Below, one piece after another: positions 8,462-46,820 of a stretch of DNA of 64,000 nucleotides. A program made the position numbers and the translations under genes. Each line of letters opens with the position of its first letter. Positions within the stretch are counted from its first letter, which is position 1. This DNA comes from Escherichia coli. Lineage in GTDB: Bacteria; Pseudomonadota; Gammaproteobacteria; Enterobacterales; Enterobacteriaceae. The stretch lies in the NCBI RefSeq assembly GCF_009931435.1, contig NZ_CP043414.1. One strand, 5' to 3'. The notes under the pieces were generated by a model. That model had not been told where the DNA came from and did no database searches. It worked only from the letters and a program-made list of their open reading frames with translations.

Positions 8462-8469
8462 TTGAATAA

Positions 8470-8494: not shown

Positions 8495-8503
8495 ATCCGC
8501 TAA

Positions 8504-10029: not shown

Positions 10030-11103
10030 TTACGAAAGCCCGCTCCCCGCAAGGACTGACGCCAGATACTTTCTGTCCATGGCTGCTTTTCGCATCTTAC
10101 GTCTTAACCCTGCCTTGAATACCTTATCATTCGTCAAAATATTAATTGCGATGTGCCGTATCCCTGAAAATAATTCTGCTGCATTTCCTCTTCTTATTTT
10201 GCAGTCGTCTTCATTCATTACCACGTCCAGACGCCAGTGCAGCTTATTCTCCACGTGCCAGTGGTTTCGGATTGCTGTGGCGAACTTCTCTGCGGTTAAA
10301 TCAGCAGAACTGATATAATATCTGACCGTCATTTCTGGCTCTTTCTTTTGTTCTGCTATTATTGACCGAAAGGAGACTGCCACGCATAATTTCTTCAGAC
10401 CTTTCCATTCAAACGTGAAATCAATAAGTTCATCAGGGACATCGCAAACAATGTGAAGACGGATTTCTTCTCTGCCGTGACTCTTTTCACTAATTGCGTA
10501 ACTGTCATGCTCTGGATTATTTAATTCTTTCAGCGGAAATTTTTCCTCGAAGCCTTTATTTAGCCGCCCCTGGTTTCCTTTTACAGCGAATAAATAATCA
10601 CCTCCCTGTTTTTGTATCTTCTCTGCAATATCTTTCTGGCAACCCATCGCATCAGTTGTGATGATTTTTCCTTTAATATCCAGCATGTTAAGAAGTTCTG
10701 GGATAGCTGTAATCTCATTGGATTTCTCATCCGTCTTGATCTGTCCGATGACCAGACTGTGCATTGTTGAGAACGCACTAATGACATGAATCGCTCCCCT
10801 GCGGCGACTCTTGTCATAAGAGTGCCGGAGCGTTTTTCCATCAATTGCAATGACGCCTTTATCATCTGAAGAATGGCAGTCACGCATCCAGTTAATAAAG
10901 CACTCGTGAAATTTTGCAGGACTGATACAGGATACAACTCTGGCAATGGTATCGTGAACAGGAATACCATTTTCAAAATCACCATATTGCTTCAAAAAAT
11001 CGAGATGTGTTTCCCCAAAATCCTCTATATCTTCCCAACCTTCTGCACCCGAAATAACGGCGCAAATAGTCAACAGTAGAATATCCGATAATTTATGTTC
11101 CAC
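10030..11103 (-). mobile_element. H-repeat-associated (ISAs1-family) transposase, the H-rpt element classically found at the distal end of E. coli Rhs elements
   Basis: 357 aa protein with DDE-type transposase features, strongly similar to the E. coli H-repeat proteins (YhhI/YbfD type); located directly downstream of the Rhs array. Confidence 0.8.
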
Positions 11104-11546: not shown

Positions 11547-11951
11547 TCATTTCATTTTTTTAAAACATACGTTAATGCCATTCACACTTCCACATTCACC
11601 AAAAGCATCAAAATAAATTTCACATTTATTGTTGCCTTTCGAAATGATGCTAACCCCCCATCTTATATTGTTATATTTTTCTTTTCTGAAATACTTCATT
11701 TGCAATAAATCAATTATCTTACCCGCATAGAGATCGCTAAGTTCATTCACCACCACTTTATATCTGTATATTTCATTAAGACCTTCCTTGCTAAGCGGAA
11801 CTAACGTGGTAACATACGATGGAAGATTAACTACCTCTATCGTTTTCACGCTATCTATTCCACACAATTCATTCACTCGCCCCATCCCCAATACCGAACC
11901 AGAAAATAGAGACAATAAAACCATCAAATATTTCATCATAAAAAACCTCAC
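11547..11951 (-). CDS. Putative Rhs immunity protein (RhsI) for the rhs-A C-terminal toxin; has a signal peptide
   Basis: 134 aa, AT-rich, starts at the rhs-A stop codon; N-terminus MKYLMVLLSLFSGSVLG looks like a Sec signal peptide; position is that of an immunity gene. Confidence 0.55.
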   Translation of the reverse strand: MRFFMMKYLMVLLSLFSGSVLGMGRVNELCGIDSVKTIEVVNLPSYVTTLVPLSKEGLNEIYRYKVVVNELSDLYAGKIIDLLQMKYFRKEKYNNIRWGVSIISKGNNKCEIYFDAFGECGSVNGINVCFKKMK

Positions 11952-14900
11952 TATTCTGGCGTACCCGTTATTGTCATCGTCTGCAACGGTCCATCCACCC
12001 GATAAAAAGGCAGTCCACTATGAGCTCCTCTGACACACTCATCTAAAGTTTTCGCCGCACGCGATTCAATTATTGTAATAACCCTTGCCTCTTCTTTATT
12101 ATCATATTTCTTATCCGTCCGACTTAAAAGAGCCATGAAATTTTCTTTATCAAGAAGGTAATACTGTGCATGTGCAAACTCATGCCCCAAACCTAATGCA
12201 GGCGATTGTGATTTCGAGTTTAATTCAGTTGAACAAAATAAAGACGCTCTACTATTCCAATATATCGTCATATTATTCGAATTAAATCTACCATTGGTTC
12301 CTTCAATATACTCTATATTTATAGTTTCTTCAGAGCTTGATAAAAAATCTATAGCATCTTTCATTCGTGAATCTTTTTCTAAATACTTAACAGCCTGATT
12401 AAAATCACTTGGATCACCATTAACCTCGAATTTTAAACCCAAAGAATCTATAAACCGAACAGGGTTTAATGGATATTTATACAGATTCCATTCACCTCTT
12501 AGCCCGATTGGATCCTGCGTGATATACCTCCCCTGCAACGGGTCATAGTACCGGTGACGGTTGTAGTACAGCCCCGACTCCTCATCATACTGCTGCCCTG
12601 GCAGACGGTACGGCTGTTGCAGGTGCTCCGGGTTTTCCTCTCCCAGCAGGTTTCCCCACTCGTCATACTCCCCGCGCCACGCCGTTTCCCCTTCCGGGCT
12701 GATAAGCGCCTGCGGCAGCCCACGGTGGTCACAGTGGTAAAGATGAAGTTTCCTCTCCGGGATGTATTCTTCCTCCATCTGGTTGTTCATCTGTTCCGCC
12801 GTCAGCCCGCACTGCGCAAGCCATGCTTCACTCTCCGCACTCACCGCACCCGCGCGCAGTTCCCGCTCCAGCCTCCCCAGCATCACCGACAGCTCCGCCG
12901 GGAGCGTCACACCCGTGTCCTCCTGCAACACCTCCGCCAGGCTACGGTGCCGCGCCTTCGCCTGTTCGCCATTCTCTGTTTCGATTCTCAGGAGCGGCGT
13001 GAAGCTTCCCGGCTGATAAATCGTCTGGATACGTGTGGTGCCGGTCTGTACCGTCGTCAGCCTGTCACCGTCCCACCCGTACCATGTCTCCTCCGGTTTA
13101 CGCGACAGCGACATCCATCCCGTCAGGTCACGCTCCCGCCGCCACACCCGTTTTCCCGTCCTGCGGCCCAGCGGGTCGTAAAGGTAGCGGCTCTCCACCT
13201 GCGGCTCGCCGTGCTGTATCCGCGTGTAGAACACCAGACGGTGCTGGCTGTCGTAATGGTAGTGGTGGGTGCGCTCGTCGTGCATCCGTATCACCCCTTC
13301 CGGGATACGGTCCGTCTTCTCCGCCAGCCTGCCGTATTCATCGTGGCGGTAGACATAGTGCGCATCTTCCGCGATGCGGTTATCCGGCCACGCCGTGAAG
13401 GTGCTGTCCGGGTGCAGTTCCGGGTCCGGCAGCCGGTTTCCTGCCGGGTCCGTCGCATACGGGATATCAATGTCCAGGTTCGCTGCCGTGGTGTGGACGC
13501 CCGTCAGCCTTCCCGTGTCGCTGTAACGGTACTCCCGGCTCTCCTGCGGGCCGCTGATACGCACCAGTTGCCCGTTATCATTCCACGTATACTCACGGTC
13601 AAGCTGCGGAAGGTTCAGGTGCCTGCTCCGGAGCTGGCCTGTGAGGGTGTATGTGCTGGTCAGTTCATATGCGGCATTACTGCCTGCCATGCTGCCGAAG
13701 CTGCGCACCGTCTCACGGTGCAGCCTGTCCCGCGTGTACTCGACCAGCGGCGTTCCGCCCAGCTTCATCCCCGCAAGATAACCGCTGCCATACGTCAGCC
13801 ACTCCACCGGCGGCAGACCGTCCGGCTCCTGACGGGTCGCCAGCCCCTGTTCGCTGTACGCGTGCCCCGTCTCATGCTCCCACAGCATCTCCCCCGTCTC
13901 CGGGTTCTCCACCGTCTGCCGTTCGCCCGTCAGGCGGCCCTTATCGTCATAGCCGTAGTGGACCGCCACACGGTGGCCTTCACTGGTATGGCTGAGGGTG
14001 GTTAACCACCCGTGCTCATCATACTGCCACTGCTCTGCCGCTTCGCCGTTCACCGTCCGGTGCGTGATGCGGTCCGACGCATCGTAGTGCCAGAGGGTGA
14101 TAAGTCCCTCGTCTTCACTGCGGACAAGCTGCCCTGTGGCGCTGTACCGGTAACGCTGTGTCCGTCCGTCAAAGCCGCGCTGCTCCGTCAGGCGGTCCAC
14201 CGGGTCATACAGGAACGTGGACTGGCTGCCGTTCTCATTAGTCAGCGTGGTGATGCGCCCGGCGGCGTCATACCCCATGCTGCGCGTCAGACCGCCCTGC
14301 GTGGTGCTGATAGCTTTACCCCACGCATCATACTGTGTCTCACTGCGGCTGCCGTTCGGGGCAATGATAGCGGTGAGGTCGCCTGCGGCGCTGTACTCAT
14401 AACGGGTTTCACGCCCCTGCACATCCTTCTGACTGACCAGTTGACCACGCGGGTTATAACTGCTGTAAGTGCTGATGCCTTCTTCCCGGTGAACCGCCGT
14501 CCTCTGCCCGTACCGGTCGTACTCATACCGTGTCGTGTACCCCGAGCAGTCCGTGAAGGCCAGCAGTTGACCGTAGCGGCTCCATGCCATCTGTTTTGTA
14601 CTGCCCGTCGCATCCTGTATCCCTGTCGGCAGCTCACTCGCCGGGTCATCATAGCTGTACCGCGTCGTCTCACCGCTGCGCGAGGTCTCCGCCGCCAGCC
14701 TTCCCTTCTCATCATACTCCCGGCTGCTGCGAAGCCCGTCCGGGTACGTCACTGACGTCACCTGCCGCTGGCTGTTGTAGCCATACCGCACCGTCCTGCC
14801 GTCCGGCCCCGTCACCGCCGTCACCGCGCCCGACGCCATATGCAGGCTGTACTCCGTCCGCCGCCCCGCCGCATCCGTCTGCGCCTTCAGCCTCCCCGCC

Positions 14901-16207
14901 GCATCATACTCGCTGCGGGTGATGCTCCCGTCCGCATGCTCCTTCTTCACCACCCGCTTCAGGCCACCCTCGCCTTCCGTGTACAGCACCTCCCGCCTGT
15001 TCAGGCTGTCCGTGATGGTCACACGGTCCTGCCCGTACTCAAAGCGGTAGGCCAGCCCCTCCGGGTTGACCTGCTCCGTCACCCGACCGGTATCATCATA
15101 CCGGTAGCGGCTCTCCGGCCTCCCCGCATAATGGTGCGCCACCATCCGCCCGGCGTGCTCCGCATCATAAGTAAACCCGCGCACCTGCGTCCCGCTGCGG
15201 TCATACACCGCCAGCAACTCACCGCTGGCCGTGTACGTGTAGCGCGCCAGCGGCGCAGTCGGCTGTTCATCCGGGTATGCCGGGTCGTGTGTCAGCCACA
15301 CCGCCTCCAGCCGGATACCGTTATCGGCACCGTATTCTGTACCGGCGGGCAGCGTGTCGGGGAAAACCTGAGAAGAGGAAACAGAACGGGGACCGGCAGG
15401 GGAAGATAAAGACGTGGCGCGCTGTTTACGGCAGGCTTCCGCCCGCTGCGCCTGCGTGCTCAGCAACAGGTGAAAACGACGGCCCGCACCGTCCGTCCCC
15501 CCCGTCACCGCGCCCGCCACGTCACCCTCCGCTGCCCGGTGAAAGGCCAGCGTCCGACCAAAGCCATCCACCACGCCCGTCAGCACCCGGTATGCGGGCG
15601 GTTCCGGCGGCAGCACCTCGTCCGCCCCCGGCACCCGCTCCGGCCAGCTGAGTATCCACCACGGCCCCTGAAGGCTGTTTGTCGCCAGGTACACATGCGG
15701 ACTCAGGCGAACATCTTCCGGCAGCACCTGCCAGAGCGCGCTTAGCGGCTGCGAACTGTGCTGCTCCGCCCCCCCGCCCCGCGCCAGCCAGAACGACTCG
15801 CTGCGGCTGTAGCTTATCTCGCCGGGAAACAGCGGCTCAAAGTGAATGCTCCTGCCGCCGTTGTCGTTGAGTATCAGTTCCCGCTCATGAACCTGTAAGC
15901 GGATATCGAAGGGCGCTTTCCAGCCGGGGCCGAACACGCCCACCGGCGCGGGCGTCCTGGTCCGGTAACTGCTGTAAGCGCGGGAAAGAATAAACGGCAG
16001 CGGGCCGGGCAGTGCCAGGTCCGTCTCGCCCGGCAGCACCTTCGCACCCAGCACCGGGTTCACCGGGTTAGCATAGGTAATCCCTCCCGGACACACCGAG
16101 CAGGCCACTCCCGTCGGCGCACCTATCAGCACCCCTGCTGAACCCTGCACAATATCCAGTCCCTTGCGGGTCATGTCGCCCTGCCGCGCCGCCGGTTTTC
16201 CGCTCAT
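11951..16207 (-). CDS. Rhs-family polymorphic toxin (distal copy) with PAAR-like N-terminus, YD-repeat shell and a C-terminal domain carrying an HExxH motif
   Basis: 1418 aa; N-terminal [16 protein letters not shown]...VACSVCPGG, many YD repeats, DPIGL demarcation motif, then a unique roughly 160 aa tail containing [10 protein letters not shown]. Confidence 0.9.
12502..16207 (-). repeat. Rhs core repeat, copy A (near-identical to 18628..22342; apparently perfect over about 12502..14060)
   Basis: Identical antisense ORFs at a fixed 6126 bp offset (12554..14005 and 18680..20131, etc.) and direct line-by-line comparison. Confidence 0.85.
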
Positions 16208-16330: not shown

Positions 16331-17299
16331 TCATTGTTTGTTATCAGAAAGTGTTTTATACAGCGGCACATATCCCACGTCTTCCACAAGACTTTGCCCC
16401 TGAGGGCTTAAAAACCAGTCCACTAGTTTTTGTGTTTCCGGTGTCGGCTTTTCGCGGGTGACCATGTAGGCATCCACCACATACGGATAAGTACCGTTGC
16501 GGATATTCTCCACCGTTGGTGCAATACCATTTATTGCCAGCAGCTTAAGATTTGGGCTTATATCCTTATTCATCTGTGTGACATAATAGCGGAAGGTGTA
16601 ACCAATTGAAGGCTGCGTATTCCGGTAGGCAATTACTTTGGTTAACACTCCATTCATAAGGCTTACTTCTGTAGATGTTCTGGCGGGTAGCATCGGTGTC
16701 TCTTTCATCACCTTTGCCAGCATCACCGTCTGGCTACCGGAATCTTCCGGACGCTGCCAGACCTGAATGCGCTCATCACTGCCACCAACCTGACTCCAGC
16801 GGGTGATTTTACCGCTGAAGATATCCCGAACCTGCTGTTCAGTAAAAGAACTGACCGGATTACTGGCGTTAACGATAAAAACAAAGGCTTCGTGGGCGAA
16901 GGGGGTATAAACCAGTTTCACCCCGGCATCGGCAGCCCGTTGTTTTTGTCCTGCGGAAGGCTGGGCAACAAAAATAACATCGGCCTGGCGCTTTATGAGA
17001 TCATTATAGGCTTCTGGTGTACGAGTCGGATACATATAATTCAAACCCGGATCTTGATGGTTATCCCCGGGGATCAAATATCGGTAAGCTGAAGCATACA
17101 GTGGATATAACGCGGTTGCACCACATACCCGGGGCCATTTATTCGAGTTATCAGTGTAGCGTAAAGTGGGTTCTCCTCGTATATTGGTTTTCTCCCAACT
17201 CACTGTTTCTTTTACGCTGTTATCGCCCCCGCCGTCTACACATCCTGACATTAATACCGTCATATAAAATAATACTGGTAACAGGCCCACCCTACGCAT
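16331..17299 (-). CDS. PstS-like (phosphate-binding-protein fold) lipoprotein; start uncertain, ORF extends to 17365
   Basis: 344 aa ORF; probable start MRRVGLLPVLFYMTVLMSGC with lipobox; AT-rich; lies between the two Rhs modules. Confidence 0.6.
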   Translation of the reverse strand: MRRVGLLPVLFYMTVLMSGCVDGGGDNSVKETVSWEKTNIRGEPTLRYTDNSNKWPRVCGATALYPLYASAYRYLIPGDNHQDPGLNYMYPTRTPEAYNDLIKRQADVIFVAQPSAGQKQRAADAGVKLVYTPFAHEAFVFIVNASNPVSSFTEQQVRDIFSGKITRWSQVGGSDERIQVWQRPEDSGSQTVMLAKVMKETPMLPARTSTEVSLMNGVLTKVIAYRNTQPSIGYTFRYYVTQMNKDISPNLKLLAINGIAPTVENIRNGTYPYVVDAYMVTREKPTPETQKLVDWFLSPQGQSLVEDVGYVPLYKTLSDNKQ

Positions 17300-17627
17300 A
17301 CAATGATTTAATAAATACGCCATATACCTCACTCTAAAATATTGATTATATAAATACATATGCATAATTATATTTACATCAAATTCTGAATGAACAATTT
17401 AAATTTAGAGAAAGTGAAATTTAATTTTTCGATACTTCCGCATACATATTCCCCTCGCTAAAAAATCATCATTCCACAATCAATCATTAATTACAACTCA
17501 ATATACATCATTTAACTTTCATTAAACTCGCAATTTATTATTACATTGTAGCCATTATGAACTGTCATCACGCACACACTCTACATACACATTAGAAACA
17601 ATATAACCCCATGAGCCATCCTCCGTT

Positions 17628-18074
17628 TCAATACTTAGTGCAGCGTGTCTTAAGGAAATTAGAAGCCACAACATCAATCTTTTCTTTTAAGACTAAATCA
17701 TCCACATAATCACAAGACAAATAGAAGTCATTACCATCGGCCATTATAAATATCCTCATAGGTAAAGATTTATCATTATCAACATGAGCATTCGTAATAA
17801 TCCAATAATAAGGAAATCTAACATTTTTTGTAGGAATACCCAATAAATCATAAGCTTTATTATTATATTCTATCGCTCCCTTAACAAACGTTGGTTTGAC
17901 CTCCTTACCAATAATGCGATGCGACGTATATTCTTCCTTCTCAGCAAACGATTGCATTAATGCCCATATAGGTTTATTTGCCAGCTCACCGTGATGAAAA
18001 ATCCGATAAAAATACACTCCTAAAAAAAATATTAAGCCTAAGCAAACCAATACCATGAGGCAGTTCTTACTCAT
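17628..18074 (-). CDS. Putative Rhs immunity protein (RhsI) for the rhs-B C-terminal toxin; N-terminal membrane anchor
   Basis: 148 aa, AT-rich, overlaps the rhs-B stop by 4 nt; N-terminal hydrophobic helix [18 protein letters not shown]. Confidence 0.55.
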
Positions 18075-21000
18075 TGATTAAAATCCGTAAAATTAGAAGG
18101 AACAGGGCCATTCTCAGGTGAAAACAATGGAGATGTATTTGATACTCGTGATGCTATCATTTCTACAGTAGCAGGAAGATACATTGGCATTCCATTATCA
18201 CCACCTAGCGGATCAGTTGAAGTTAAAATTTCATTTATTGAATCTACTGAGACTCCCGCATGCAACATTGCCTCAATAACCATTGTTGCACAATTGTGCG
18301 TAAAATAGTTATAGTCACTTCTATCTACTTTATATTTTTCATCAATGTACTTAATCATTGCTTTCTCTTGTTCTGGCGTGGTTTTAATTGTATATATCCT
18401 CGTGCTTCTACGTTGTGCTTGTTCAGTTAAATAAGCTATGACACTCCCTCCACGTGGGGTAGCGGTTCCATAGCTATATACCCCTTTTCCAGTAAATGCC
18501 ATCGCAGAATGCCCTAATGGATTACCACTCGTGGGTCCCCCAGCAAAAATAAGGGTATCCAAACCAAGTGGATCTATATTTATAGTTGGATTCCACGGAT
18601 ATTTATAAAGATTCCATCCCCCCGCAAGCCCGATTGGATCCTGCGTGATATACCTCCCCTGCAACGGGTCATAGTACCGGTGACGGTTGTAGTACAGCCC
18701 CGACTCCTCATCATACTGCTGCCCTGGCAGACGGTACGGCTGTTGCAGGTGCTCCGGGTTTTCCTCTCCCAGCAGGTTTCCCCACTCGTCATACTCCCCG
18801 CGCCACGCCGTTTCCCCTTCCGGGCTGATAAGCGCCTGCGGCAGCCCACGGTGGTCACAGTGGTAAAGATGAAGTTTCCTCTCCGGGATGTATTCTTCCT
18901 CCATCTGGTTGTTCATCTGTTCCGCCGTCAGCCCGCACTGCGCAAGCCATGCTTCACTCTCCGCACTCACCGCACCCGCGCGCAGTTCCCGCTCCAGCCT
19001 CCCCAGCATCACCGACAGCTCCGCCGGGAGCGTCACACCCGTGTCCTCCTGCAACACCTCCGCCAGGCTACGGTGCCGCGCCTTCGCCTGTTCGCCATTC
19101 TCTGTTTCGATTCTCAGGAGCGGCGTGAAGCTTCCCGGCTGATAAATCGTCTGGATACGTGTGGTGCCGGTCTGTACCGTCGTCAGCCTGTCACCGTCCC
19201 ACCCGTACCATGTCTCCTCCGGTTTACGCGACAGCGACATCCATCCCGTCAGGTCACGCTCCCGCCGCCACACCCGTTTTCCCGTCCTGCGGCCCAGCGG
19301 GTCGTAAAGGTAGCGGCTCTCCACCTGCGGCTCGCCGTGCTGTATCCGCGTGTAGAACACCAGACGGTGCTGGCTGTCGTAATGGTAGTGGTGGGTGCGC
19401 TCGTCGTGCATCCGTATCACCCCTTCCGGGATACGGTCCGTCTTCTCCGCCAGCCTGCCGTATTCATCGTGGCGGTAGACATAGTGCGCATCTTCCGCGA
19501 TGCGGTTATCCGGCCACGCCGTGAAGGTGCTGTCCGGGTGCAGTTCCGGGTCCGGCAGCCGGTTTCCTGCCGGGTCCGTCGCATACGGGATATCAATGTC
19601 CAGGTTCGCTGCCGTGGTGTGGACGCCCGTCAGCCTTCCCGTGTCGCTGTAACGGTACTCCCGGCTCTCCTGCGGGCCGCTGATACGCACCAGTTGCCCG
19701 TTATCATTCCACGTATACTCACGGTCAAGCTGCGGAAGGTTCAGGTGCCTGCTCCGGAGCTGGCCTGTGAGGGTGTATGTGCTGGTCAGTTCATATGCGG
19801 CATTACTGCCTGCCATGCTGCCGAAGCTGCGCACCGTCTCACGGTGCAGCCTGTCCCGCGTGTACTCGACCAGCGGCGTTCCGCCCAGCTTCATCCCCGC
19901 AAGATAACCGCTGCCATACGTCAGCCACTCCACCGGCGGCAGACCGTCCGGCTCCTGACGGGTCGCCAGCCCCTGTTCGCTGTACGCGTGCCCCGTCTCA
20001 TGCTCCCACAGCATCTCCCCCGTCTCCGGGTTCTCCACCGTCTGCCGTTCGCCCGTCAGGCGGCCCTTATCGTCATAGCCGTAGTGGACCGCCACACGGT
20101 GGCCTTCACTGGTATGGCTGAGGGTGGTTAACCACCCGTGCTCATCATACTGCCACTGCTCTGCCGCTTCGCCGTTCACCGTCCGGTGCGTGATGCGGTC
20201 CGACGTATCGTAGTGCCAGAGGGTGATAAGCCCCTCGTCTTCACTGCGGACAAGCTGCCCTGCGGCGCTGTACCGGTAACGCTGTGTCCTGCCATCAAAG
20301 CCGCGCTGCTCCGTCAGGCGGTCCAGCACATCATAGGTAAACTCACTCCGGCTGCCGTTCTCGTTGGTCAGCACGGTGATGCGCCCGGCGGCGTCATACC
20401 CCATGCTGCGCGTCAGCCCGCCCTGCGTGGTGCTGACGGCCTTTCCCCACGCATCATACTGTGTCTCACTGCGGCTGCCGTCCGGGGCAATGATAGCGGT
20501 GAGGTCGCCTGCGGCGCTGTACTCATAACGGGTTTCACGCCCCTGCACATCCTTCTGACTGACCAGTTGACCACGCGGGTTATAACTGCTGTAAGTGCTG
20601 ATGCCTTCTTCCCGGTGAACCGCCGTCCTCTGCCCGTACCGGTCGTACTCATACCGTGTCGTGTACCCCGAGCAGTCCGTGAAGGCCAGCAGTTGACCGT
20701 AGCGGCTCCATGCCATCTGTTTTGTACTGCCCGTCGCATCCTGTATCCCTGTCGGCAGCTCACTCGCCGGGTCATCATAGCTGTACCGCGTCGTCTCACC
20801 GCTGCGTGAGGTCTCCGCCGCCAGCCTTCCCTTCTCGTCATACTCCCGGCTGCTGCGCAGCCCGTCCGGGTACGTCACTGACGTCACCTGCCGCTGGCTG
20901 TTGTAGCCATACCGCACCGTCCTGCCGTCCGGCCCCGTCACCGCCGTCACCGCGCCCGACGCCATATGTATCCGGTACTCCGTCCGCCGTCCCGCCGCAT

Positions 21001-22342
21001 CCGTCTGCGCCTTCAGCCTCCCCGCCTCATCATACCCGCTGCGGGTGATGCTCCCGTCCGCATGCTCCTTCTTCACCACACGCTTCAGGCCACCCTCGCC
21101 CTCCGTGTACAGCACCTCCCGCCTGTTCAGGCTGTCCGTGATGGTCACACGGTCCTGCCCGTACTCAAAGCGGTAGTCCAGTCCCTCCGGGTTGACCTGC
21201 TCCGTCACCCGCCCGGTATCATCATACCGGTAGCGGCTCTCCGGCCTCCCCGCATAATGGTGCGCCACCATCCGCCCGGCGTGCTCCGCATCATAAGTAA
21301 ACCCGCGCACCTGCGTCCCGCTGCGGTCATACACCGCCAGCAACTCACCGCTGGCCGTGTACGTGTAGCGCGCCAGCGGCGCAGTCGGCTGTTCATCCGG
21401 GTATGCCGGGTCGTGTGTCAGCCACACCGCCTCCAGACGGATACCGTTATCGGCACCGTATTCTGTACCGGCGGGCAGCGTGTCGGGGAAAACCTGAGAA
21501 GAGGAAACAGAACGGGGACCGGCAGGGGAAGATAAAGACGTGGCGCGCTGTTTACGGAAGGCTTCCGCCCGCTGCGCCTGCGTGCTCAGCAACAGGTGAA
21601 AACGACGGCCCGCACCGTCCGTCACCCCCGTCACCGCGCCCGCCACGTCACCCTCTGCCACCCGGTGGAAAGTCATCGTCCGACCAAAGCCATCCACCAC
21701 GCCCGTCAGTACCCGGTATGCGGGTGGCTCCGGCGGCAGCACCTCGTCCACTTCCGGCACCCGCTCCGGCCAGCCGAGCACCAGCCACTGCCCGGTTGTG
21801 CTGACAGCCATCATATAGGTGTGTGGACTCAGGCGGACCGCTTCCGGCAGCGCCCGCCAGAACCGCGCAAGCGGGTGTCCTTTATGCTGTTTCAGCACCC
21901 CGCCCCGCGCCAGCCAGAACGACTCGCTGCGGCTGTAGCTTATCTCGCCGGGAAACAGGGGTTCAAAGTGGATGCTCCGGCCACCGCTGTCGTTAAGTAT
22001 CAGTTCACGCTCACAAATCTGTAAGCGGATGTCGGAGGGGGCTTTCCAGCCGGGGCCGAATATCCCCACCGGGGCTGGCGTCTTCGTCCGGTAACTGCTG
22101 TAGGCGCGGAAAAGGATGAACGGCAACGGGCCGGATAGTGCCAGGTCGGTTTCAGCAGGCAGTACCTTCGCTCCCAGCAGCGGGTTTACCGGATTGCCAT
22201 ATTTCGGCGTGGCTTCCCCTGTGGGACACACCGAGCAGGCAACCCCCGTCGGCGCACCTATCAGCACCCCTGCTGAACCCTGCACAATATCCAGTCCCTT
22301 GCGGGTCATGTCACCCTGCCGCGCCGCCGGTTTTCCGCCCAT
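18071..22342 (-). CDS. Rhs-family polymorphic toxin (vgrG-proximal copy) with PAAR-like N-terminus and a C-terminal domain with a His...Cys pattern (possible permuted papain-like hydrolase)
   Basis: 1423 aa; same architecture as the other rhs; after DPIGL the tail contains GHSAMAF...YSYG...[12 protein letters not shown]. Confidence 0.9.
18628..22342 (-). repeat. Rhs core repeat, copy B (near-identical to 12502..16207)
   Basis: See copy A; N-terminal 250 codons are more diverged, the central and 3' core is almost identical. Confidence 0.85.
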
Positions 22343-22417
22343 GAATCAATTCCTTCTGCTTTTAATATGGTTCATCTGGCCACTGCACCAGTTCCGTTTT
22401 AATTTTTTGCACCTGAC

Positions 22418-24559
22418 TCAAAATTGCCGCATATCCGGCATTCCGGGGGGTAAATCTTTCGGCACAGGCGCATCCGGCACAGGTTGTGTGGCACCACAGT
22501 TCCAGTTAATCACCGGCGCATCACCGTTCACATCCGACTCCCCTTCCAGATGAATGTGCGTACCATTAAGAAATATGCTTCCGTCCTTCGTCAGCACCAG
22601 CCTTGCCTTACCACAGCAGAGTTCAAGATGCTCACCGGCAGAATAAACTGCTGTTTGTCCGGTGTTTTCCTTCATCGTCTTGCCCACCGAGAAGGTGACG
22701 TTATTCCCTACATTGACGCTGTAGCCCATTCCCACCATCAGTGATTTATGCAGCCCTACCTGTGAGGACTGCAACAACGCCACCGAGGTATTCATAATGC
22801 CGCCTACCGTCGTCTGGTAAGCCACGCCCACCGTCAGCGCACGAATGATCCCCACCTTTTCAACCTGGTTTGATCCCACTTTGATAATCTGGTTACTGCC
22901 CACCGTTTCCACCTGGTTGACACCAACCGTCTGTATCTGATTAACGCCAATGTTCTGGATCTGGTTATTGGTAACGGTGATCGCCTGGTTGTTACCTATT
23001 TTTTCGGCATGGTTGTTTATCACATCAGTGGTGCGGTTATTCAGCACCTCGGTGTTCATGTTCTTCTGCGCGTGGATGTAGACCTGTTCTTTCCCTGTCG
23101 CATCGTCAAACTTCAGTTCATTAAACCCGCTGCCCTTATAGGTTTTCGAACGAATGGTCATCTGCGTCTTTGTTCCCGGCAGGCTGCCGGGGGTGCGGTT
23201 TTCCTGGTGGTAGGTACGCCCCATAATAATCGGCTGGTCCGGATCGCCGTTGAGGAAGTCCACAATGACCTCCTGACCCACACGCGGTATCGCCAGGTTA
23301 CCAAACCCGGTGCCTGCCCACGCCTGTGCCACACGGATCCAGCATGAACTGTCCTGGTTTGACGGGTTATAACGGTCCCAGTTAAATTTCACCCGCACGC
23401 GGCCATGTTCATCACAGAAGATTTCTTCTCCTGCCGGTCCCGTCACGACGGCGCTCTGCGGGCCATCCACCAGCGGTTTCAGCAACGGCTGTGGCCGCCA
23501 TGTTCTGTCTGCCGGTATTACCGCAAAGTGGTTATTCAGCGTGGTACCTGAACCCCTGCGTCCCGGCACCGCCTGCGGCTGCTCGCCGTGCAGTTCACTT
23601 GCCACCACCTGCCATTCCCGGTTCAGGTTCGCCTGCGGATGCCCCGTCAGCGCAATTCGCCGTCCCGGCCATATCTCCGGAGAACGGCTTGTTCCGCGCG
23701 CCACTTCTGCGTTGTTTCGCCAGCCATCCATCTGCCAGCGGGCAAAGTTCTGCCCGTGGGCACCCTTGAAACGTCCGGGGTAGTCATACACTTCATACTG
23801 TGTGCGCTGGTAATCCTGGTACTGGCCTTCCTGATCAAAACGCCCTGCCCAGCCGGGTCGTTTAAAGGTGTAGTCCTTGGTCACCACGGAAGAAGGGCGG
23901 ATTTGTGCGCTGTAGCGGAACTGGCTGATGCATAGGGTGCTCACCTCGGTACGGGTGTTCGGATTCCAGGGGATCTCAAAGGACTCCGGCAGATAACGCA
24001 CGGTGTCGCACAGGACCAGGCTCTGGTCGGTACTTTTTTGCGCGTGCTCCTCATAAAAGAAGATGCCTTCCTCCGCCGCCATCCGGCACAGGAAATCGTA
24101 ATCGGTTTCGCCGTACTGGACACAAAACTCACGGGAAGGATGCGGCTCGCTGAACAGCGGACTCCACTCGGTCACCCCGTTTTCTTTCAGGATCGTCGCG
24201 AGTATGCTTTCGATGTCCTCATTCTGGAAGATACGGAAGTTCTGGCGCAGCCCTGTGCGCCACAGCGGTGGGCATACCTTCATGCTGTACAGCATCTGGT
24301 TTTTGTCGTTCTCCCCCAGTTCAAACCAGGTCACCACACCTTTCACCCGGCGCTGTACGTCATCGCCCTGCCATATCGTCAGGTAGGCCATTTTGTCCAG
24401 CACCTGCGCAAATTCAAGGGAGAGAAACTGCTGGCTGACCAGAGAGAGATCGAGGGAAAAGAGCGAAGAGAGTGACTGGTTCAGATGAAAGGAGACCACC
24501 GCAAACGCGTCCGGTGGCAGGCCGTCCACTTCCAGCGTGAAACGTAATCCGGTTGACAT
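22418..24559 (-). CDS. vgrG: T6SS spike protein VgrG (TssI)
   Basis: 713 aa; gp27/gp5-like VgrG body with a short Pro-rich C-terminal tail; 75 nt upstream of rhs-B. Confidence 0.95.
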   Translation of the reverse strand: MSTGLRFTLEVDGLPPDAFAVVSFHLNQSLSSLFSLDLSLVSQQFLSLEFAQVLDKMAYLTIWQGDDVQRRVKGVVTWFELGENDKNQMLYSMKVCPPLWRTGLRQNFRIFQNEDIESILATILKENGVTEWSPLFSEPHPSREFCVQYGETDYDFLCRMAAEEGIFFYEEHAQKSTDQSLVLCDTVRYLPESFEIPWNPNTRTEVSTLCISQFRYSAQIRPSSVVTKDYTFKRPGWAGRFDQEGQYQDYQRTQYEVYDYPGRFKGAHGQNFARWQMDGWRNNAEVARGTSRSPEIWPGRRIALTGHPQANLNREWQVVASELHGEQPQAVPGRRGSGTTLNNHFAVIPADRTWRPQPLLKPLVDGPQSAVVTGPAGEEIFCDEHGRVRVKFNWDRYNPSNQDSSCWIRVAQAWAGTGFGNLAIPRVGQEVIVDFLNGDPDQPIIMGRTYHQENRTPGSLPGTKTQMTIRSKTYKGSGFNELKFDDATGKEQVYIHAQKNMNTEVLNNRTTDVINNHAEKIGNNQAITVTNNQIQNIGVNQIQTVGVNQVETVGSNQIIKVGSNQVEKVGIIRALTVGVAYQTTVGGIMNTSVALLQSSQVGLHKSLMVGMGYSVNVGNNVTFSVGKTMKENTGQTAVYSAGEHLELCCGKARLVLTKDGSIFLNGTHIHLEGESDVNGDAPVINWNCGATQPVPDAPVPKDLPPGMPDMRQF

Positions 24560-24721
24560 AGCAACCTCCGGGTTTAAGGAAAAACAGACAGTTCGCTGTT
24601 AAAGCGGCTGTAACAGTACAGTGTTACGCTTGCGTTCAGGCACGCTACCGCCGAAGTTTCCGGCATCCGCCATCTCCCGTGAACGTAACCCCTTACTGAC
24701 AACCTTTCTTTTTACGGCGTA

Positions 24722-24760
24722 ATACAAAAACAGCATCCGGCCTGATAGCCGGATGCTGTT
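24722..24760 (-). terminator. Rho-independent terminator downstream of hcp, before vgrG
   Basis: Perfect inverted repeat cagcatccggc / gccggatgctg; minus strand reads hairpin then TTTTTG. Confidence 0.6.
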
Positions 24761-24768
24761 GGCTTAAC

Positions 24769-25287
24769 TTATGCTTCCAGCGGTGCGCGCCAGTCGTCGG
24801 CACCGGAGGTGCCAGATTTGACGTGTTCCCACTCAATCTTGCGGTAGGCCAGTGAAACTTCGAGCAACTGGGTGAACTCGCGTTTCGCCGGGTCCTGGCA
24901 ATGCGGCATATGCAGTTTCATATCGACAATCGTCGAATCAGTCAGGCGGGTGGTGAAATAATGCTCCTGTTTGCCTTCCACAGATGTACGCCACCAGTGC
25001 AGTTCAGTGGTTGGCAGCATTTCACCGGAGGCCAGTGCGTTGTACATCAGCGGAACCGCTTTGTTCAGCGCCACGGTAAAAATGAACGGCTTGTGAGCAC
25101 GCTGACCCGCAGGCTGACCGGACTGAGGATCGGTCGGGACAGTAACGTTATGCAGGAATTCCTGCACCAGCATCTCGTCTTCGTGCCCCTGCACATAGAT
25201 GTTGCCGACAGAATCAGCGGTAAATGCACCTGCAGTAATATTTCCCTGGGTCTGACCAGTGATGGAGATATAACACGGTGTTGGCAT
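24769..25287 (-). CDS. hcp: T6SS tube protein Hcp (TssD), copy 1
   Basis: 172 aa Hcp-family protein; divergently arranged from tssB. Confidence 0.9.
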   Translation of the reverse strand: MPTPCYISITGQTQGNITAGAFTADSVGNIYVQGHEDEMLVQEFLHNVTVPTDPQSGQPAGQRAHKPFIFTVALNKAVPLMYNALASGEMLPTTELHWWRTSVEGKQEHYFTTRLTDSTIVDMKLHMPHCQDPAKREFTQLLEVSLAYRKIEWEHVKSGTSGADDWRAPLEA

Positions 25288-25584
25288 TTGTAAACTCCTT
25301 GTTAACGTGGTTAATTACTACTTACAATGACCTGCCGTTAATCCCAGACAGGCAGATGCAGCTCACTTCACGGAACCGCATCATTTTTCAGTATTTTTTA
25401 CATACAAACCGAGCTAGAATTTACGGTTGTCGTAAAAACTATTTTTAAAATCATTAAATCTCTTATTCAGCAATAACTTAATAATATATATCTGGATAAC
25501 TATACCCAACTGTTCAAAGTCCGTATTGCCTCCATAAAATGGCCAAAGCTGAATCATGAATAAATATTGTATTTATCCTTTCTG

Positions 25585-25603
25585 AATTATCATTTTGATA
25601 ATT
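25585..25603. promoter_or_regulatory. Candidate Fur box: perfect palindrome in the hcp-tssB divergent intergenic region
   Basis: aattatca ttt tgataatt is a perfect inverted repeat built from GATAAT-like hexamers in a very AT-rich 700 bp intergenic region. Confidence 0.4.
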
Positions 25604-25982
25604 TTTGAGATATTCCTTAAAAATACCCACTTACTCAATCACAAAACAAATATATAAACAAGCAATCATTAGATTAGCTTATGTTTAATGAAATTATTAT
25701 ATACTTCAATAAGATACATAAAAACTCTATATTTAAATTATTGCCATAATACACCTGACGCGAATTGCACAGGTTCACACAATCTATTTAACGCTTGCAG
25801 AATACCCCTCTTTACGATCGATAAAAAGTCCTTTTCTTATTTATTTTGAAGCGTAAAATGCGGGGTGATGAAGGAGTGGTGATTTTATTTTCACCGCCAT
25901 CAAGGCGGCATTTCCGATATTTTTTGCGGTACAAATATGCTGTGTTCATGGCCTGTACGAGATAACATGACGGATCACTTTT

Positions 25983-26483
25983 ATGAGCAAAAAATTTGAA
26001 GGCAGCGTCGCGCCTCGCGAGCGTATTAATATATCGTATGTCCCAAAAACAGATGGCCAGACGGCTGAAGTGGAACTTCCGCTTAACATGCTCGTTGTCG
26101 GCGATACCGGAAATACGCAGGAAACATCCTCACTGGATGAACGTCAGGCAGTTTCCGTTAACAAGCACAATTTCGGTGCAGTGATGGCTGAAGCAGCCAT
26201 TGGCCTCAATTTTACCGTCCCCGCCACGCTGAAGGGAAGCACAACGGACGATGAACTGAATGTGGCGCTGAATATCAAGTCACTGGATGATTTTTCACCA
26301 GATAGCGTGGCCCGGCAGGTTCCGGAAGTGAATAAATTGCTGGAATTACGTGAAGCACTGACTGCACTGAAGGGGCCGATGGGTAACCTTCCGGCATTCC
26401 GTACCCAGCTCCAGGCATTGCTGGAAAATGAAGAGTCCCGCGAGCAGTTGCTCAAAGAAATCGGCCAGGTGAGCAATAAATAA
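25983..26483 (+). CDS. tssB: T6SS contractile sheath small subunit TssB (VipA)
   Basis: 166 aa; typical TssB sequence; first gene of the plus-strand operon. Confidence 0.9.
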   Translation: MSKKFEGSVAPRERINISYVPKTDGQTAEVELPLNMLVVGDTGNTQETSSLDERQAVSVNKHNFGAVMAEAAIGLNFTVPATLKGSTTDDELNVALNIKSLDDFSPDSVARQVPEVNKLLELREALTALKGPMGNLPAFRTQLQALLENEESREQLLKEIGQVSNK

Positions 26484-26517
26484 CCACCACTATTTCATTA
26501 AACAGGGTTATCCAGGC

Positions 26518-26742
26518 ATGACGGCACACAAAAATATCTCCGGGACATACCACCTCTCTGTTGCAGACATTCTGCAGGTGGTTTACCAGGTATGTTTCAG
26601 CCCGTCCGTTGAAATCAACCAGGATGGTGTGGCTGCGCTGATTACAACACTGGATCGCCGTATCAGTGATCTATTGGATGAGATTATCCATTTTTGTGAG
26701 TTTCAGCAGAGCGCGTCGCACTGGCAGCGCGTACTTCACTGA
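26518..26742 (+). pseudogene. TssC-like N-terminal fragment (74 codons) between tssB and tssC
   Basis: Translation ...NQDGVAALITTLDRRISDLLDEIIHFCEFQQSASHWQRV parallels TssC residues ...NKLAVDSMIADIDERISRQMDVIIHAPAFQQVESFWRSL; fills an unusual 310 nt tssB-tssC gap. Confidence 0.45.
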
Positions 26743-26792
26743 CGGCGAAAAGCCGGTTTCAGAAACACAGCTAAAACAGAAGGATTTTCAGT

Positions 26793-28268
26793 ATGTCTTT
26801 ACAGGAAGAGGAACTCGTTTCCAGTCATGCCGGGCAGCCTGAGCAGGCATCGTCGCTGCTTGATCAAATCATGGCACAGACCCGTATTCAGCCCGGTTCG
26901 GAAGGTTATGACGTTGCCCGCCAGGGTGTGACAGCCTTTATTGCCAGCATCCTGCAATCCACTGCATCTGCCGAACCGGTCAATAAACTGGCCGTGGACA
27001 GCATGATTGCAGATATTGATGAACGCATCAGCCGCCAGATGGATGTCATCATCCATGCGCCTGCCTTTCAGCAGGTCGAGTCGTTCTGGCGCTCACTGAA
27101 AACCATGGTGGATCGCGTTGATTTCCGTGAAAACATCAAGGTCAACGTGCTTCATGTCACCAAGCAGGAACTTCTGGAAGACTTTGAGTTTGCGCCAGAA
27201 ATTATTCAGTCCGGATTTTATAAGCACGTTTATTCGTCCGGTTTCGGACAGTTTGGCGGTGAACCCATCGCTGCCGTGCTGGGCGCTTATGAGTTCAAAA
27301 ATACCGCGCCTGACATGAAACTGCTGCAATACGTCAGTGCCGTGGGCGCAATGGCGCACGCACCGTTCCTGTCCTCCGTTTCCCCGGAGTTTATGGGGCT
27401 GAACTCGTGGACCGAACTGCCTAATATCAAAGATCTTTATGCCATCTTTGAAGGTCCGGCCTACACCAAATGGCGCGCCCTGCGTGACTCGGAAGATTCG
27501 CGCTATTTAGGGCTTACGGCACCCCGCTTCCTGCTTCGCCAGCCCTATTCACCAACAGATAACCCTGTTAAGAACTTTAACTATTACGAAGATGTCAGCC
27601 AGAACCACGAAGATTATCTGTGGGGTAATACGGCCTGGATGCTGGCATGCAATATCGCAGACAGTTTTGCCAAATACCGCTGGTGTCCAAACATTATCGG
27701 TCCGCAAAGCGGCGGCGCAGTGAAAGATCTGCCGGTGCATCTGTTCGAAACGATGGGGCAGATTCAGGCCAAAATCCCAACCGAGGTGCTGGTCACCGAT
27801 CGCCGCGAATTTGAACTGGCTGAAGAGGGTTTTATCACCCTTACCATGCGTAAAGACTCTGATAATGCAGCCTTTTTCTCTGCAAACTCGGTACAAAAAC
27901 CGAAGCACTTTCCGGGAAAAGATGCAGAAACCAACTATAAGCTGGGTACGCAGCTTCCTTATCTCTTCATCATCAATCGGTTAGCGCACTACATCAAGGT
28001 GTTGCAGCGTGAACAACTGGGGTCATGGAAAGAAAGGAGCGACTTAGAAAGAGAGCTTAATACCTGGATCCGTCAGTATGTTGCCGACCAGGAAAACCCG
28101 CCTGCAGACGTGCGCAGCCGCAAACCTCTGCGCGCTGCCAAAGTTGAGGTTATGGATGTAGAAGGCGAACCCGGCTGGTACCAGGTTGCGCTAAGCGTGA
28201 GACCTCATTTTAAATTTATGGGGGCAAATTTTGAGCTTTCCCTGGTTGGCCGGTTAGACAGGGAGTAA
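26793..28268 (+). CDS. tssC: T6SS contractile sheath large subunit TssC (VipB)
   Basis: 491 aa; typical TssC sequence. Confidence 0.95.
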   Translation: MSLQEEELVSSHAGQPEQASSLLDQIMAQTRIQPGSEGYDVARQGVTAFIASILQSTASAEPVNKLAVDSMIADIDERISRQMDVIIHAPAFQQVESFWRSLKTMVDRVDFRENIKVNVLHVTKQELLEDFEFAPEIIQSGFYKHVYSSGFGQFGGEPIAAVLGAYEFKNTAPDMKLLQYVSAVGAMAHAPFLSSVSPEFMGLNSWTELPNIKDLYAIFEGPAYTKWRALRDSEDSRYLGLTAPRFLLRQPYSPTDNPVKNFNYYEDVSQNHEDYLWGNTAWMLACNIADSFAKYRWCPNIIGPQSGGAVKDLPVHLFETMGQIQAKIPTEVLVTDRREFELAEEGFITLTMRKDSDNAAFFSANSVQKPKHFPGKDAETNYKLGTQLPYLFIINRLAHYIKVLQREQLGSWKERSDLERELNTWIRQYVADQENPPADVRSRKPLRAAKVEVMDVEGEPGWYQVALSVRPHFKFMGANFELSLVGRLDRE

Positions 28269-46811: not shown

Positions 46812-46820
46812 GGATTAACT

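Follow-up and report, generated by a model that had tools for sequence, protein, structure and literature searches.

In the window, which is the whole 64,000-nt stretch of Escherichia coli DNA that was analyzed (contig NZ_CP043414.1 of assembly GCF_009931435.1), an ordinary hcp-vgrG-rhs effector arm of the E. coli T6SS-2 cluster was found on the minus strand, divergent from tssB. In this arm hcp is followed by a strong intrinsic terminator, and rhs follows vgrG directly with no adaptor gene between them. According to the account that we propose, the hairpin acts as both terminator and mRNA stabilizer, the genes beyond it are expressed from little read-through, and the Rhs protein docks, adaptor-free, on a cognate C-terminal tail of VgrG; the probability of this account as a whole is put at about 0.72. 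The anatomy, the conservation and the co-occurrence of the parts, given below, were read directly from the DNA.

The tube protein gene hcp (TssD, 172 aa; 25287..24769, minus strand) was recognized by PF05638 T6SS_HCP of Pfam (5e-31) and TIGR03344 of NCBIfam (207 bits), and its counterpart in E. coli 7/2 and 86-24 is annotated as an Hcp family protein. After a spacer of 209 nt it is followed by the spike gene vgrG (TssI, 713 aa; 24559..22418, minus strand), which matched Phage_GPD (3e-75), Phage_base_V and Gp5_trimer_C of Pfam and TIGR03361 (630 bits), and then by rhs (RHS element core protein, 1423 aa; 22342..18071, minus strand), the product of which matched RHS_repeat, DUF6531 and RHS and, over the full length of the profile (positions 1-1261 of 1261), NF041261 RHS_core of NCBIfam with 2549 bits against a cut-off of 2000. 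The Rhs core occupies aa 1-1261 and ends with DPIGL at aa 1257-1261, and the variable C-terminal toxin occupies aa 1262-1423. The stop codon of rhs is overlapped by 4 nt by an open reading frame of 148 aa with an N-terminal hydrophobic helix (17628..18074, minus strand), which matched no family in the Pfam and NCBIfam profile searches and is, by the usual rhs-rhsI layout, probably the immunity gene. The hcp, vgrG, rhs layout is frequent: at least 80% of a 3.2-kb query was covered in 2039 of 5426 complete E. coli genomes.

The intrinsic terminator (24719..24760, minus strand), the counterpart of region I in the published h3R region, consists of a stem-loop (24760..24729) followed by the U-tract UUUUUGUAUU. 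In the terminator scan it was recorded as 14 pairs (8 G-C) with a 4-nt loop, then TTTTTGTATT, starting 9 nt past the stop codon of hcp. Six terminator-like matches were found in the 10 kb scanned, with a long stem only at the hcp hairpin, and on the opposite strand no T-run follows the palindrome. The minimum free energy was -28 kcal/mol (z = -5.6), a stability reached by none of 200 shuffled sequences. A hairpin lies directly 3' of hcp in 19 of 19 hcp-vgrG loci from other genera (Enterobacterales and Vibrionaceae); in an alignment of 11 sequences with spacers of ~200 nt, 90.9% of the cells in the stem were paired (slid controls, at most 58%) and compensatory changes were seen at 4 pairs (9 cells). 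With its G+C-rich stem and U-tract past the stop codon and its conserved structure, the element is an intrinsic terminator in form.

In its inner part, ATCCGGC/GCCGGAT, the stem is similar to the base of the REP stem of E. coli as given by what we take to be the REP consensus, and this likeness favors a view of the hairpin as a repeat of the REP/BIME type or a palindrome that arose by chance, in either case without a function of its own. Such an origin is highly improbable in view of the fold stability relative to shuffled sequences, the presence of the hairpin at all 19 loci, its compensatory changes and the experimental activity of an identical hairpin in EHEC (PMC13141884). A REP/BIME repeat was also rejected by search, as the hairpin sequence occurs once in the window and the REP consensus pattern matched only near 5143-5158.

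The terminator between hcp and vgrG is already known in E. coli, having been tested in EHEC in 2026. The hcp3-vgrG3 intergenic region of EHEC O157:H7 EDL933 was described as h3R (Vazquez-Lopez et al., Microbiol Spectr, April 2026; PMC13141884), with a hairpin of 14 pairs and 32 bases at +8 of the hcp3 3' UTR, in agreement with the position and size of the stem-loop at 24760..24729; the 32-nt stem-loop of EHEC 86-24 is identical to that of the window. The species, the locus and the gene order (hcp, 209 nt, vgrG, 75 nt, rhs) are the same, and a segment of 371 nt across the spacer is 97.6% identical between the window and EHEC 86-24; the differences are a few point changes in regions II and III, another pair of Rhs C-terminal toxin and immunity protein, and a second rhs downstream in the window strain. 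In EHEC, the hairpin blocks transcription into vgrG and stabilizes hcp mRNA: the joint hcp3-vgrG3 transcript was not detected by RT-PCR in the wild type (only a trace from a Trc plasmid) and was increased by deletion of region I alone as well as of regions I and II, and after deletion of the hairpin hcp mRNA fell to 6% and Hcp protein to ~50% (PMC13141884). Substitution of gfp and mCherry for hcp and vgrG gave the same effects (PMC13141884). When the EHEC hcp promoter was exchanged and induced, vgrG3 mRNA also rose, less than hcp3 mRNA did, and the smaller rise fits weak read-through.

The preliminary description had placed a strong terminator between hcp and vgrG on the minus strand, and this is borne out by the anatomy, stability and conservation of the hairpin and by the tested EHEC hairpin of identical sequence. 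By analogy with those experiments, the hairpin of the window would end transcripts and stabilize hcp mRNA. RNA polymerase reading hcp would meet a strong Rho-independent terminator at which most transcripts would stop, and the 3' hairpin would shield hcp mRNA from decay, so that termination and protection would both push the level of the tube protein Hcp far above that of the spike. vgrG, rhs and rhsI would then be expressed from slight read-through and perhaps also from signals in a conserved block of ~110 nt beyond the hairpin. The same description had ascribed a high level of Hcp relative to VgrG and Rhs to partial read-through, and this stands in part: the identical EHEC hairpin does uncouple hcp3 from vgrG3, but, because stabilization of hcp mRNA and further control in the ~170 nt downstream also act, read-through is not the sole determinant of the Hcp:VgrG ratio.

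A different weighting of these activities, in which the hairpin is mainly a 3'-end stabilizer of hcp mRNA and the low level of VgrG results chiefly from the downstream block together with H-NS silencing, is possible but on balance rather unlikely. It draws on the finding that loss of region I, with its drastic effect on hcp mRNA, raised VgrG3 only slightly, clear detection of VgrG3 requiring the loss of both regions I and II (PMC13141884), and on the better conservation of the block in sequence than of the stem. A stem of 14 bp rich in G+C followed by five U is, however, the classic form of an intrinsic terminator, and removal of region I alone was enough to raise the joint transcript (PMC13141884). 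The roles of stabilizer and terminator are moreover compatible, and both are probably real. The terminator offers a simple reason for the level of Hcp far exceeding that of VgrG, and one that recurs 3' of hcp across genera.

The conserved block itself (24590..24700, minus strand), which has a length of ~110 nt and lies between the terminator and the ribosome-binding region of vgrG, matches h3R region II together with a portion of region III. It is near-invariant in 11 loci from at least 6 genera, irrespective of the VgrG and the cargo encoded downstream, and is more conserved in sequence than the hairpin stem. In EHEC, a promoter was predicted in the stretch of ~170 nt past the hairpin, deletion of this stretch raised downstream expression, and VgrG3 was undetectable when the Lac or AraBAD promoter replaced h3R (PMC13141884). 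Between the hairpin and vgrG of the window, no sigma-70-like site was found on the minus strand by consensus scan, and no sigma-54 -24/-12 match for vgrG was seen by eye. When 22000..26900 was searched against Rfam by E-value, the sole match was at chance level and lay inside vgrG, and the spacer falls in no known RNA family. RNAalifold predicted a long-range stem of 29 pairs in the block with no compensatory change, so that an RNA structure is not distinguishable from a DNA inverted repeat. A repeat with two arms, GTCAGTAAGGGGTTACG / CGTAACACTGTACTG, was noted here.

The spacer between vgrG and rhs (22343..22417, minus strand; sequence and six-frame translation) is 75 nt long and contains the ribosome-binding site of rhs (AGAAGGAA), and an in-frame TGA lies two codons ahead of the rhs ATG. 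In EHEC, the 5' UTR of the counterpart rhs is free of hairpins and permits expression. No adaptor gene was found in this gap by six-frame translation, in which the longest open stretch was 16-24 codons; no match to DUF1795, DUF4123 or DUF2169 was obtained among the window ORFs scanned, and by PGAP annotation the same cluster of E. coli 7/2 and 86-24 holds no adaptor. Antisense ORFs across the junction were rejected as adaptors, having no family match, as were ORFs of 42-47 aa that lie within the hcp-vgrG spacer or overlap it; the reading frames of those in the spacer (42-45 aa) are not conserved across 11 related loci, one of which has no ORF of at least 20 aa. The preliminary description had stated that rhs follows vgrG after 75 nt with no DUF4123, DUF2169 or Eag-type gene and had named a small adaptor ORF in the gap as the observation that would contradict it; such an ORF was looked for in both gaps and none fits, and the statement holds. 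vgrG genes that are followed at once by an Rhs toxin gene, without an adaptor, are common and have been described before.

The N-terminal 50 aa of Rhs (22193..22342, minus strand) comprise one PAAR repeat (PAAR_motif match at aa 2-29) and a CxxC linker, ending before PVNPLLGAK, and are followed by DUF6531 (PF20148, 1e-15; aa 49-126; 21965..22198, minus strand), which is the N-terminal plug of the Rhs shell. Against the PAAR profile (PF05488) the N-terminus scored 14.6 bits, below the cut-off of 27, over profile positions 21-51 of 70. The segment aligns with the third repeat of relatives that have three repeats and score 63-137 bits, and its local matches to the final repeat in Tre23, SalCis10 and VCA0105 were weak (E from 0.014 to above 1). 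One position after the PAARxxD motifs, which we take to hold the PAAR zinc ligands, is occupied by His, His and Cys in the successive repeats of the three-repeat relatives, by Lys in this Rhs and by Tyr, Met, Ile or Thr in its orthologues. With its sub-threshold score, lone repeat and Lys at the presumed ligand position, the segment is not a PAAR domain. A single PAAR repeat of ~30 residues cannot alone form the three-fold PAAR cone. No transmembrane segment was found in Rhs (maximum 19-residue hydropathy 1.28 in the first 300 aa), and the prePAAR motif AARxxDxxxH is incomplete, its His being missing; for these two reasons an Eag chaperone is not expected.

Direct coupling of vgrG to rhs was tied to one C-terminal module of VgrG (aa 577-713; 22421..22831, minus strand), which consists of beta-helix turns with YSAGEHLEL-CCG-ARLVLTKDGSIFLNGT..GD..INWNCG and a Pro-rich tail and contains two invariant Cys per VgrG chain. 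The module is at least 52% identical in all 16 VgrGs encoded directly ahead of an Rhs with a short N-terminus, and is absent, or at most 32% identical over comparable length, in VgrGs ahead of other genes. Conversely, the short-N-terminus Rhs is encoded next, after a gap of 27-82 nt, in 16 of 16 cases with the module and in none of ~46 with other tails; the 16 loci span 10 genera, five of them come from one Trabulsiella genome, and the co-occurrence statistic is inflated by shared ancestry. The junction is kept without an inserted gene in all 16 loci, and the motifs of the Rhs N-terminus and of the VgrG tail are invariant across genera. After other VgrG tails, the 45 distinct first genes included 19 of DUF4123, 10 of DUF2169 and 3 of PAAR. 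Such adaptor modules (DUF4123/Tap-Tec, DUF2169) occur in sister T6SS clusters, for example of E. coli 2016C-3878 and LF82, which share the upstream layout of hcp, terminator, conserved block and vgrG, with a VgrG core 40-60% identical to that of the window in most; they differ in the VgrG tail and in the adaptor that comes next, followed by a PAAR-like or other effector.

Since direct coupling goes with this one module, the determinant looks like a cognate pair of VgrG tail and Rhs N-terminus, and the module is proposed as the docking site for a presumed direct contact. The 50-residue N-terminus would dock directly on the tail of the VgrG from the preceding gene. With no N-terminal transmembrane segment to shield, Rhs would need no helper of the Eag, DUF4123 or DUF2169 type, and its shell, with the toxin inside, would be carried by the spike in the way that VgrG1c carries Tse5 of Pseudomonas aeruginosa. 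The earlier suggestion that loading depends on the PAAR-like N-terminus alone is plausible by the analogy of Tse5 and VgrG1c, but must be amended in that the N-terminus is a lone sub-threshold repeat and coupling is tied to the VgrG tail. The module offers a concrete partner for the question of how an N-terminus with a third of a PAAR domain brings an Rhs shell of 160 kDa onto the spike, a question that extends to thousands of Rhs proteins of E. coli and other enterobacteria sharing this N-terminus; and the window can be annotated with confidence as carrying the h3R terminator and a cognate VgrG-Rhs pair, with no adaptor gene missing.

Tse5 (PA2684, RhsP1) is the best solved relative of the Rhs (8cp6, 2e-125). 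In both proteins a short N-terminal fragment (47 aa in Tse5, 50 aa in the window Rhs) precedes the DUF6531 plug and the shell, DUF6531 being the N-terminal plug in the Tse5 structure (PMC10684867), and neither has a transmembrane segment; the VgrG gene of Tse5 (PA2685) has the adjacent locus tag. Residue 51 of the Rhs aligns with residue 1 of the Tse5 shell chain 8cp6_B (5e-15, aa 51-148), and PVNPLLGAK stands at the position of the self-cleavage site K47|P48, P48 being the first shell residue of Tse5. The 47-residue fragment of Tse5 contains a cryptic PAAR-like domain required for secretion, which depends on VgrG1c/VgrG4. The two proteins differ in that Tse5 reportedly lacks a literal P-A-A-R signature, one of which is retained in the E. 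coli Rhs, in their unlike C-terminal toxins, and in that N-terminal self-cleavage has been shown for Tse5 and is putative for the E. coli Rhs. With its N-terminus of ~50 residues, DUF6531 plug and shell ending in the DPxGL core, the window Rhs follows a Tse5-like plan. Class I prePAAR Rhs proteins (Salmonella Rhs1-SciW, P. protegens RhsA-EagR1, Enterobacter cloacae ECL_01567 with Eag ECL_01566, and EHEC RhsF-EagR) also have an Rhs shell, a C-terminal toxin, an immunity gene and linkage to vgrG, but are distinguished by AARxxDxxxH, an N-terminal transmembrane region, a split PAAR and eag between vgrG and rhs. The window Rhs has the motif without its His, no transmembrane segment and no eag (DUF1795) neighbor, and lies outside this Eag-dependent class.

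That an adaptor or chaperone is nevertheless required and is encoded elsewhere, either by an unannotated ORF of the island or as the EagR of another vgrG island, is quite unlikely. Candidates exist among the ORFs without family match (148 aa, 17628-18074; 134 aa, 11547-11951; 304 aa, 45897-46811; 155 aa, 46821-47288), in EHEC eagR adjoins rhsF in a separate island (PMC7216683), and VgrG3 with the counterpart Rhs supplied in trans gave neither secretion nor killing in EHEC, a result that also counts against the proposed direct loading. This failure, however, concerns the whole T6SS, because secretion of Hcp failed as well. The targets of Eag chaperones are the transmembrane segments of prePAAR effectors (PMC7773334), and the window Rhs has no such segment; the rhs genes adjacent to eagR form a clade apart from the window-type rhs (PMC7216683); the uninterrupted junction recurs in the 16 loci of 10 genera; and for Tse5, of the same plan, no chaperone appears in the published descriptions examined.

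With the PAAR of the Rhs reduced to the third repeat, the spike tip would, on one reading, differ from a standard one-chain PAAR cone. Such a non-canonical tip, in which the N-terminus is not bound in PAAR-like fashion, would consist either of a cone assembled jointly by three Rhs N-termini (one for each VgrG chain) or of the Cys-bearing VgrG tail itself, with the Rhs repeat docked at its side; it is unlikely, if somewhat less so than an adaptor encoded elsewhere. It is favored by the single repeat, by the Lys at the presumed ligand position and by the two invariant Cys of the VgrG tail, which are replaced by Ser and Thr in the one VgrG found that is paired with an Rhs keeping the full three-repeat PAAR. 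Residues 1-29 of Tse5 are also absent from the cryo-EM map, and a literature search gave no structure of a VgrG4-Tse5 complex. Against it, three shells of ~160 kDa on one tip would be crowded, and the Cys comparison comes from one locus only. If true, the cone of three N-termini would mean three toxin shells per spike, and a non-canonical tip would be common to the very large enterobacterial Rhs core family and Tse5. Among three further full-PAAR relatives, P0081 and P0113 had no vgrG upstream in the recovered contigs, and P0121 is preceded by a 270-aa gene without family match and a VgrG with an unrelated tail.

The hcp (25287..24769), vgrG (24559..22418) and rhs (22342..18071) genes, all on the minus strand, were assigned by family searches as TssD/Hcp, TssI/VgrG and "RHS element core protein" (NF041261; score 2549 bits, cut-off 2000), respectively, and a 148-aa ORF (18074..17628, minus strand) overlaps the rhs stop. 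From 25983, tssB, tssC, tssE, tssF, tssG, tagH, tssJ, tssK, dotU, clpV, vasI, tssA and tssM are encoded on the strand opposite to hcp. The same cluster is present in EHEC and is named T6SS-2 in the literature. A 3.2-kb stretch was 98.7% identical to many complete E. coli genomes, at least 80% of it was present in 2039 of 5426 complete E. coli genomes, and in strain 7/2 the cluster adjoins yafV-ivy-fadE.

A hairpin with a 14-pair stem (8 G-C) and a 4-nt loop, followed by TTTTTGTATT, starts 9 nt after the hcp stop (24760..24729, minus strand). Its predicted fold (-28 kcal/mol, z = -5.6) was equalled by none of 200 shuffles, and no T-run follows the palindrome when the opposite strand is read, so that termination is expected in a single direction. 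The hairpin sequence occurs once in the window; a REP element at this position was rejected because the REP consensus matches only near 5150. The stem-loop matches that of EHEC 86-24 exactly, and identity over a 371-nt segment across the spacer is 97.6%.

The hcp3-vgrG3 spacer of EHEC EDL933 was named h3R by Vazquez-Lopez et al. (Microbiol Spectr, April 2026; PMC13141884) and comprises region I, a 32-base, 14-pair hairpin at +8 of the hcp3 3′ UTR, region II, in which a promoter was predicted, and region III, the vgrG3 5′ UTR. No joint hcp3-vgrG3 product was obtained by RT-PCR from wild-type EHEC, and a trace was obtained from a Trc plasmid; the product increased without region I and increased further without regions I and II, and with either deletion hcp3 mRNA was at 6% and Hcp3 protein at about half. 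The same opposite effects of the deletions were recorded with gfp upstream and mCherry downstream of h3R, and after the hcp3 promoter was swapped and induced, vgrG3 mRNA increased less than hcp3 mRNA (PMC13141884). From the RT-PCR, deletion and promoter-swap data, the hcp hairpin is a terminator, leaky at most, and a stabiliser of the mRNA; read-through past it is slight at most, and the sequence 3′ of it contributes further repression. The terminator reported between hcp and vgrG in the preliminary description is confirmed, and to the partial read-through proposed there as a source of high Hcp relative to VgrG and Rhs, stabilisation of hcp mRNA is to be added.

By a VgrG protein search using one genome per species, 79 loci were collected. 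Of these, hcp immediately precedes vgrG in 19 (Citrobacter, Yokenella, Atlantibacter, Enterobacter, Pseudocitrobacter, Buttiauxella, Rahnella, Lelliottia, Grimontia and Enterovibrio), and every one of the 19 has a strong hairpin at most a few tens of nucleotides from the hcp stop, in most cases with a T-run after it. Eleven sequences whose spacers are about 200 nt long were aligned: 90.9% of the stem cells were paired and both sides had changed at 4 of the 14 pairs (9 cells), compared with at most 58% paired in a control in which the stem partner was slid by 1-3 columns. The hairpin after hcp is thus general to these clusters rather than peculiar to the window.

Between the hairpin and vgrG, some 110 nt (roughly 24700..24590, minus strand) form a block that is near-invariant in 11 loci of at least six genera regardless of VgrG and cargo, and more conserved in sequence than both the terminator stem and the 60 nt that precede vgrG. 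In the RNAalifold fold, GTCAGTAAGGGGTTACG and CGTAACACTGTACTG pair as an imperfect inverted repeat that encloses a small GCCGGAAACTTCGGC hairpin; compensatory changes were found at 0 of the 29 pairs, so that an RNA structure and a DNA inverted repeat are indistinguishable here. The block matched no Rfam family, and a consensus scan found no sigma-70-like site in it. It overlaps region II of h3R, and deletion of regions I and II in EHEC raised downstream expression (PMC13141884).

That rhs follows vgrG without an adaptor gene, as also described at the outset, was borne out by translation of the gap and by family searches of the window ORFs. The 75-nt gap contains an in-frame TGA two codons ahead of the rhs ATG and no open stretch longer than 24 codons; a small adaptor ORF was looked for there and none was found, and no match to DUF1795 (Eag), DUF4123 or DUF2169 was obtained among the window ORFs scanned. 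Two groups of ORFs were rejected as adaptors, as neither had a family match: those of 42-47 aa within the hcp-vgrG spacer or overlapping it, of which the spacer ORFs do not keep their frame in related loci, and antisense ORFs over the vgrG-rhs junction. PrePAAR effectors carry the motif AARxxDxxxH and are bound by Eag chaperones at their N-terminal transmembrane regions (PMC7773334). The window Rhs differs from these in that its motif lacks the His, and the top 19-residue hydropathy in its first 300 aa is 1.28, indicating the absence of a transmembrane segment; for both reasons no Eag would be expected. In another EHEC island eagR lies between vgrG1 and rhsF, the eagR-adjacent rhs genes forming a separate clade, and the same in-silico study had already noted that vgrG3 is directly followed by rhs, there named "paar" (PMC7216683). 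The terminator and the adaptor-free vgrG-rhs order are thus both in the literature for the same locus or a close analogue, and the finding is already known; the initial observation is confirmed and its interpretation partly supported.

In the 1423-aa Rhs, Pfam PAAR_motif matched aa 2-29 only (14.6 bits; cut-off 27). A full-library HMMER search with Rhs aa 1-252 gave 445 relatives, most of which share the start position and a few of which have about 60 additional N-terminal residues. The longer relatives contain three PAAR repeats (e.g. PAARKGD, PAARMGD and PAARVTD; 63-137 bits), and the window N-terminus aligns only to the third, after which G-x-ACS-x-CP and an 11-residue segment are common to both; where these three repeats have His, His and Cys, the window Rhs has Lys. 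Matches to solved structures were weak and local (E 0.014 to >1) and involved the final repeat of Tre23/Rhs1, SalCis10 and VCA0105 PAAR. Residue 51 (PVNP...) is aligned with P48 of Tse5, an Rhs effector of P. aeruginosa; the Tse5 shell chain begins at P48 after self-cleavage at K47|P48 (PMC10684867). The window Rhs therefore has the plan of Tse5: an N-terminal piece of 5 kDa that includes a "cryptic PAAR-like" segment, then the DUF6531 plug, shell and toxin. Tse5 depends on VgrG1c/VgrG4, encoded at the adjacent locus tag, and its N-terminal piece, which has no membrane module, was described as required for secretion (PMC10684867 among the sources).

VgrG tails were compared in the 62 of the 79 loci with a complete VgrG C-terminal end and enough downstream DNA. 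A short-N-terminus Rhs lies 27-82 nt after vgrG for 16 VgrGs (Citrobacter, Yokenella, Pseudocitrobacter, Phytobacter, Trabulsiella, Buttiauxella, E. albertii, Lelliottia, Rahnella and an E. coli-like contig in a MAG), and the C-terminal module of the 713-aa window VgrG (aa 577-713) was present in all 16 (52-100% identity), counts inflated by shared ancestry, with five of the loci from one Trabulsiella genome. The module ends in YSAGEHLEL-x-CG-x-ARLVLTKDG-x-IFLNGT ... GD ... INWNCG, followed by a Pro-rich tail; two Cys per tail and a 13-residue segment of the Rhs N-terminus were invariant across genera. In the 62-locus set no short-N-terminus Rhs followed a VgrG with another tail, and the genes after these (45 distinct) encode DUF4123 (19), DUF2169 (10) and PAAR (3) proteins, the rest being assorted. 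The co-occurrence fits a direct and specific contact, which we infer, between VgrG tail and Rhs N-terminus. A lone repeat of about 30 residues cannot form the three-fold PAAR cone, and a spike tip made of three Rhs N-termini, or one formed by the VgrG tail, seems rather improbable; no structure of a VgrG4-Tse5 complex was found in the searchable literature. The presumed loading by the "PAAR-like N-terminus alone" is better worded as by a single PAAR repeat together with its cognate VgrG tail.

On a metagenome contig (L084), vgrG and a full three-repeat-PAAR Rhs relative (3492-5948 and 6001-10593) lie 52 nt apart; this VgrG tail is a homologue of the window's in which Ser and Thr replace the two Cys (HLELHSG, IEWNTG), a single case, and the Cys comparison was not extended by three further full-PAAR relatives that were looked up. 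The vgrG-rhs sequences in a Collinsella MAG and an Akkermansia muciniphila MAG (L067 and L081) were 99.6-100% identical to the window VgrG and are most likely mis-binned E. coli contigs.

The C-terminal toxin of Rhs (aa 1262-1423; 18071-18559) modestly matched the Lnb N-terminal periplasmic domain (aa 1306-1362, 27 bits against a cut-off of 22.2), and the 148-aa ORF (17628-18074) has a hydrophobic helix at its start, a hint of a toxin that acts on the envelope and a membrane-anchored immunity protein. Downstream lie a second full-length rhs (1418 aa, 11951-16207, minus strand) without its own vgrG and its probable immunity gene (134 aa, 11547-11951), with a gene for a PstS-like substrate-binding protein (344 aa, 16331-17365) between the two rhs units. 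The first 40 residues of the two Rhs proteins differ at one position only; they would therefore be competitors for one VgrG.

At 45372-47288 (plus strand), a second hcp (160 aa, PF05638, 8e-24) closes the tss operon and is followed by ORFs of 304 and 155 aa, which had no Pfam match and could be an Hcp-linked effector/immunity pair. In the tssB-tssC interval, a 74-aa ORF (26518-26742, plus strand), annotated by PGAP as "hypothetical" in other strains, showed a weak match to positions 1-33 of the VipB/TssC N-terminal domain (E = 0.003) and may have arisen from the start of tssC by splitting off or by duplication. An ISAs1-type transposase (DDE_Tnp_1 and associated domain) is encoded at 10030-11103 (minus strand), in the interval from the last rhs unit to yafV, and strains 7/2 and 86-24 carry an ISAs1 copy at the corresponding end of the island.
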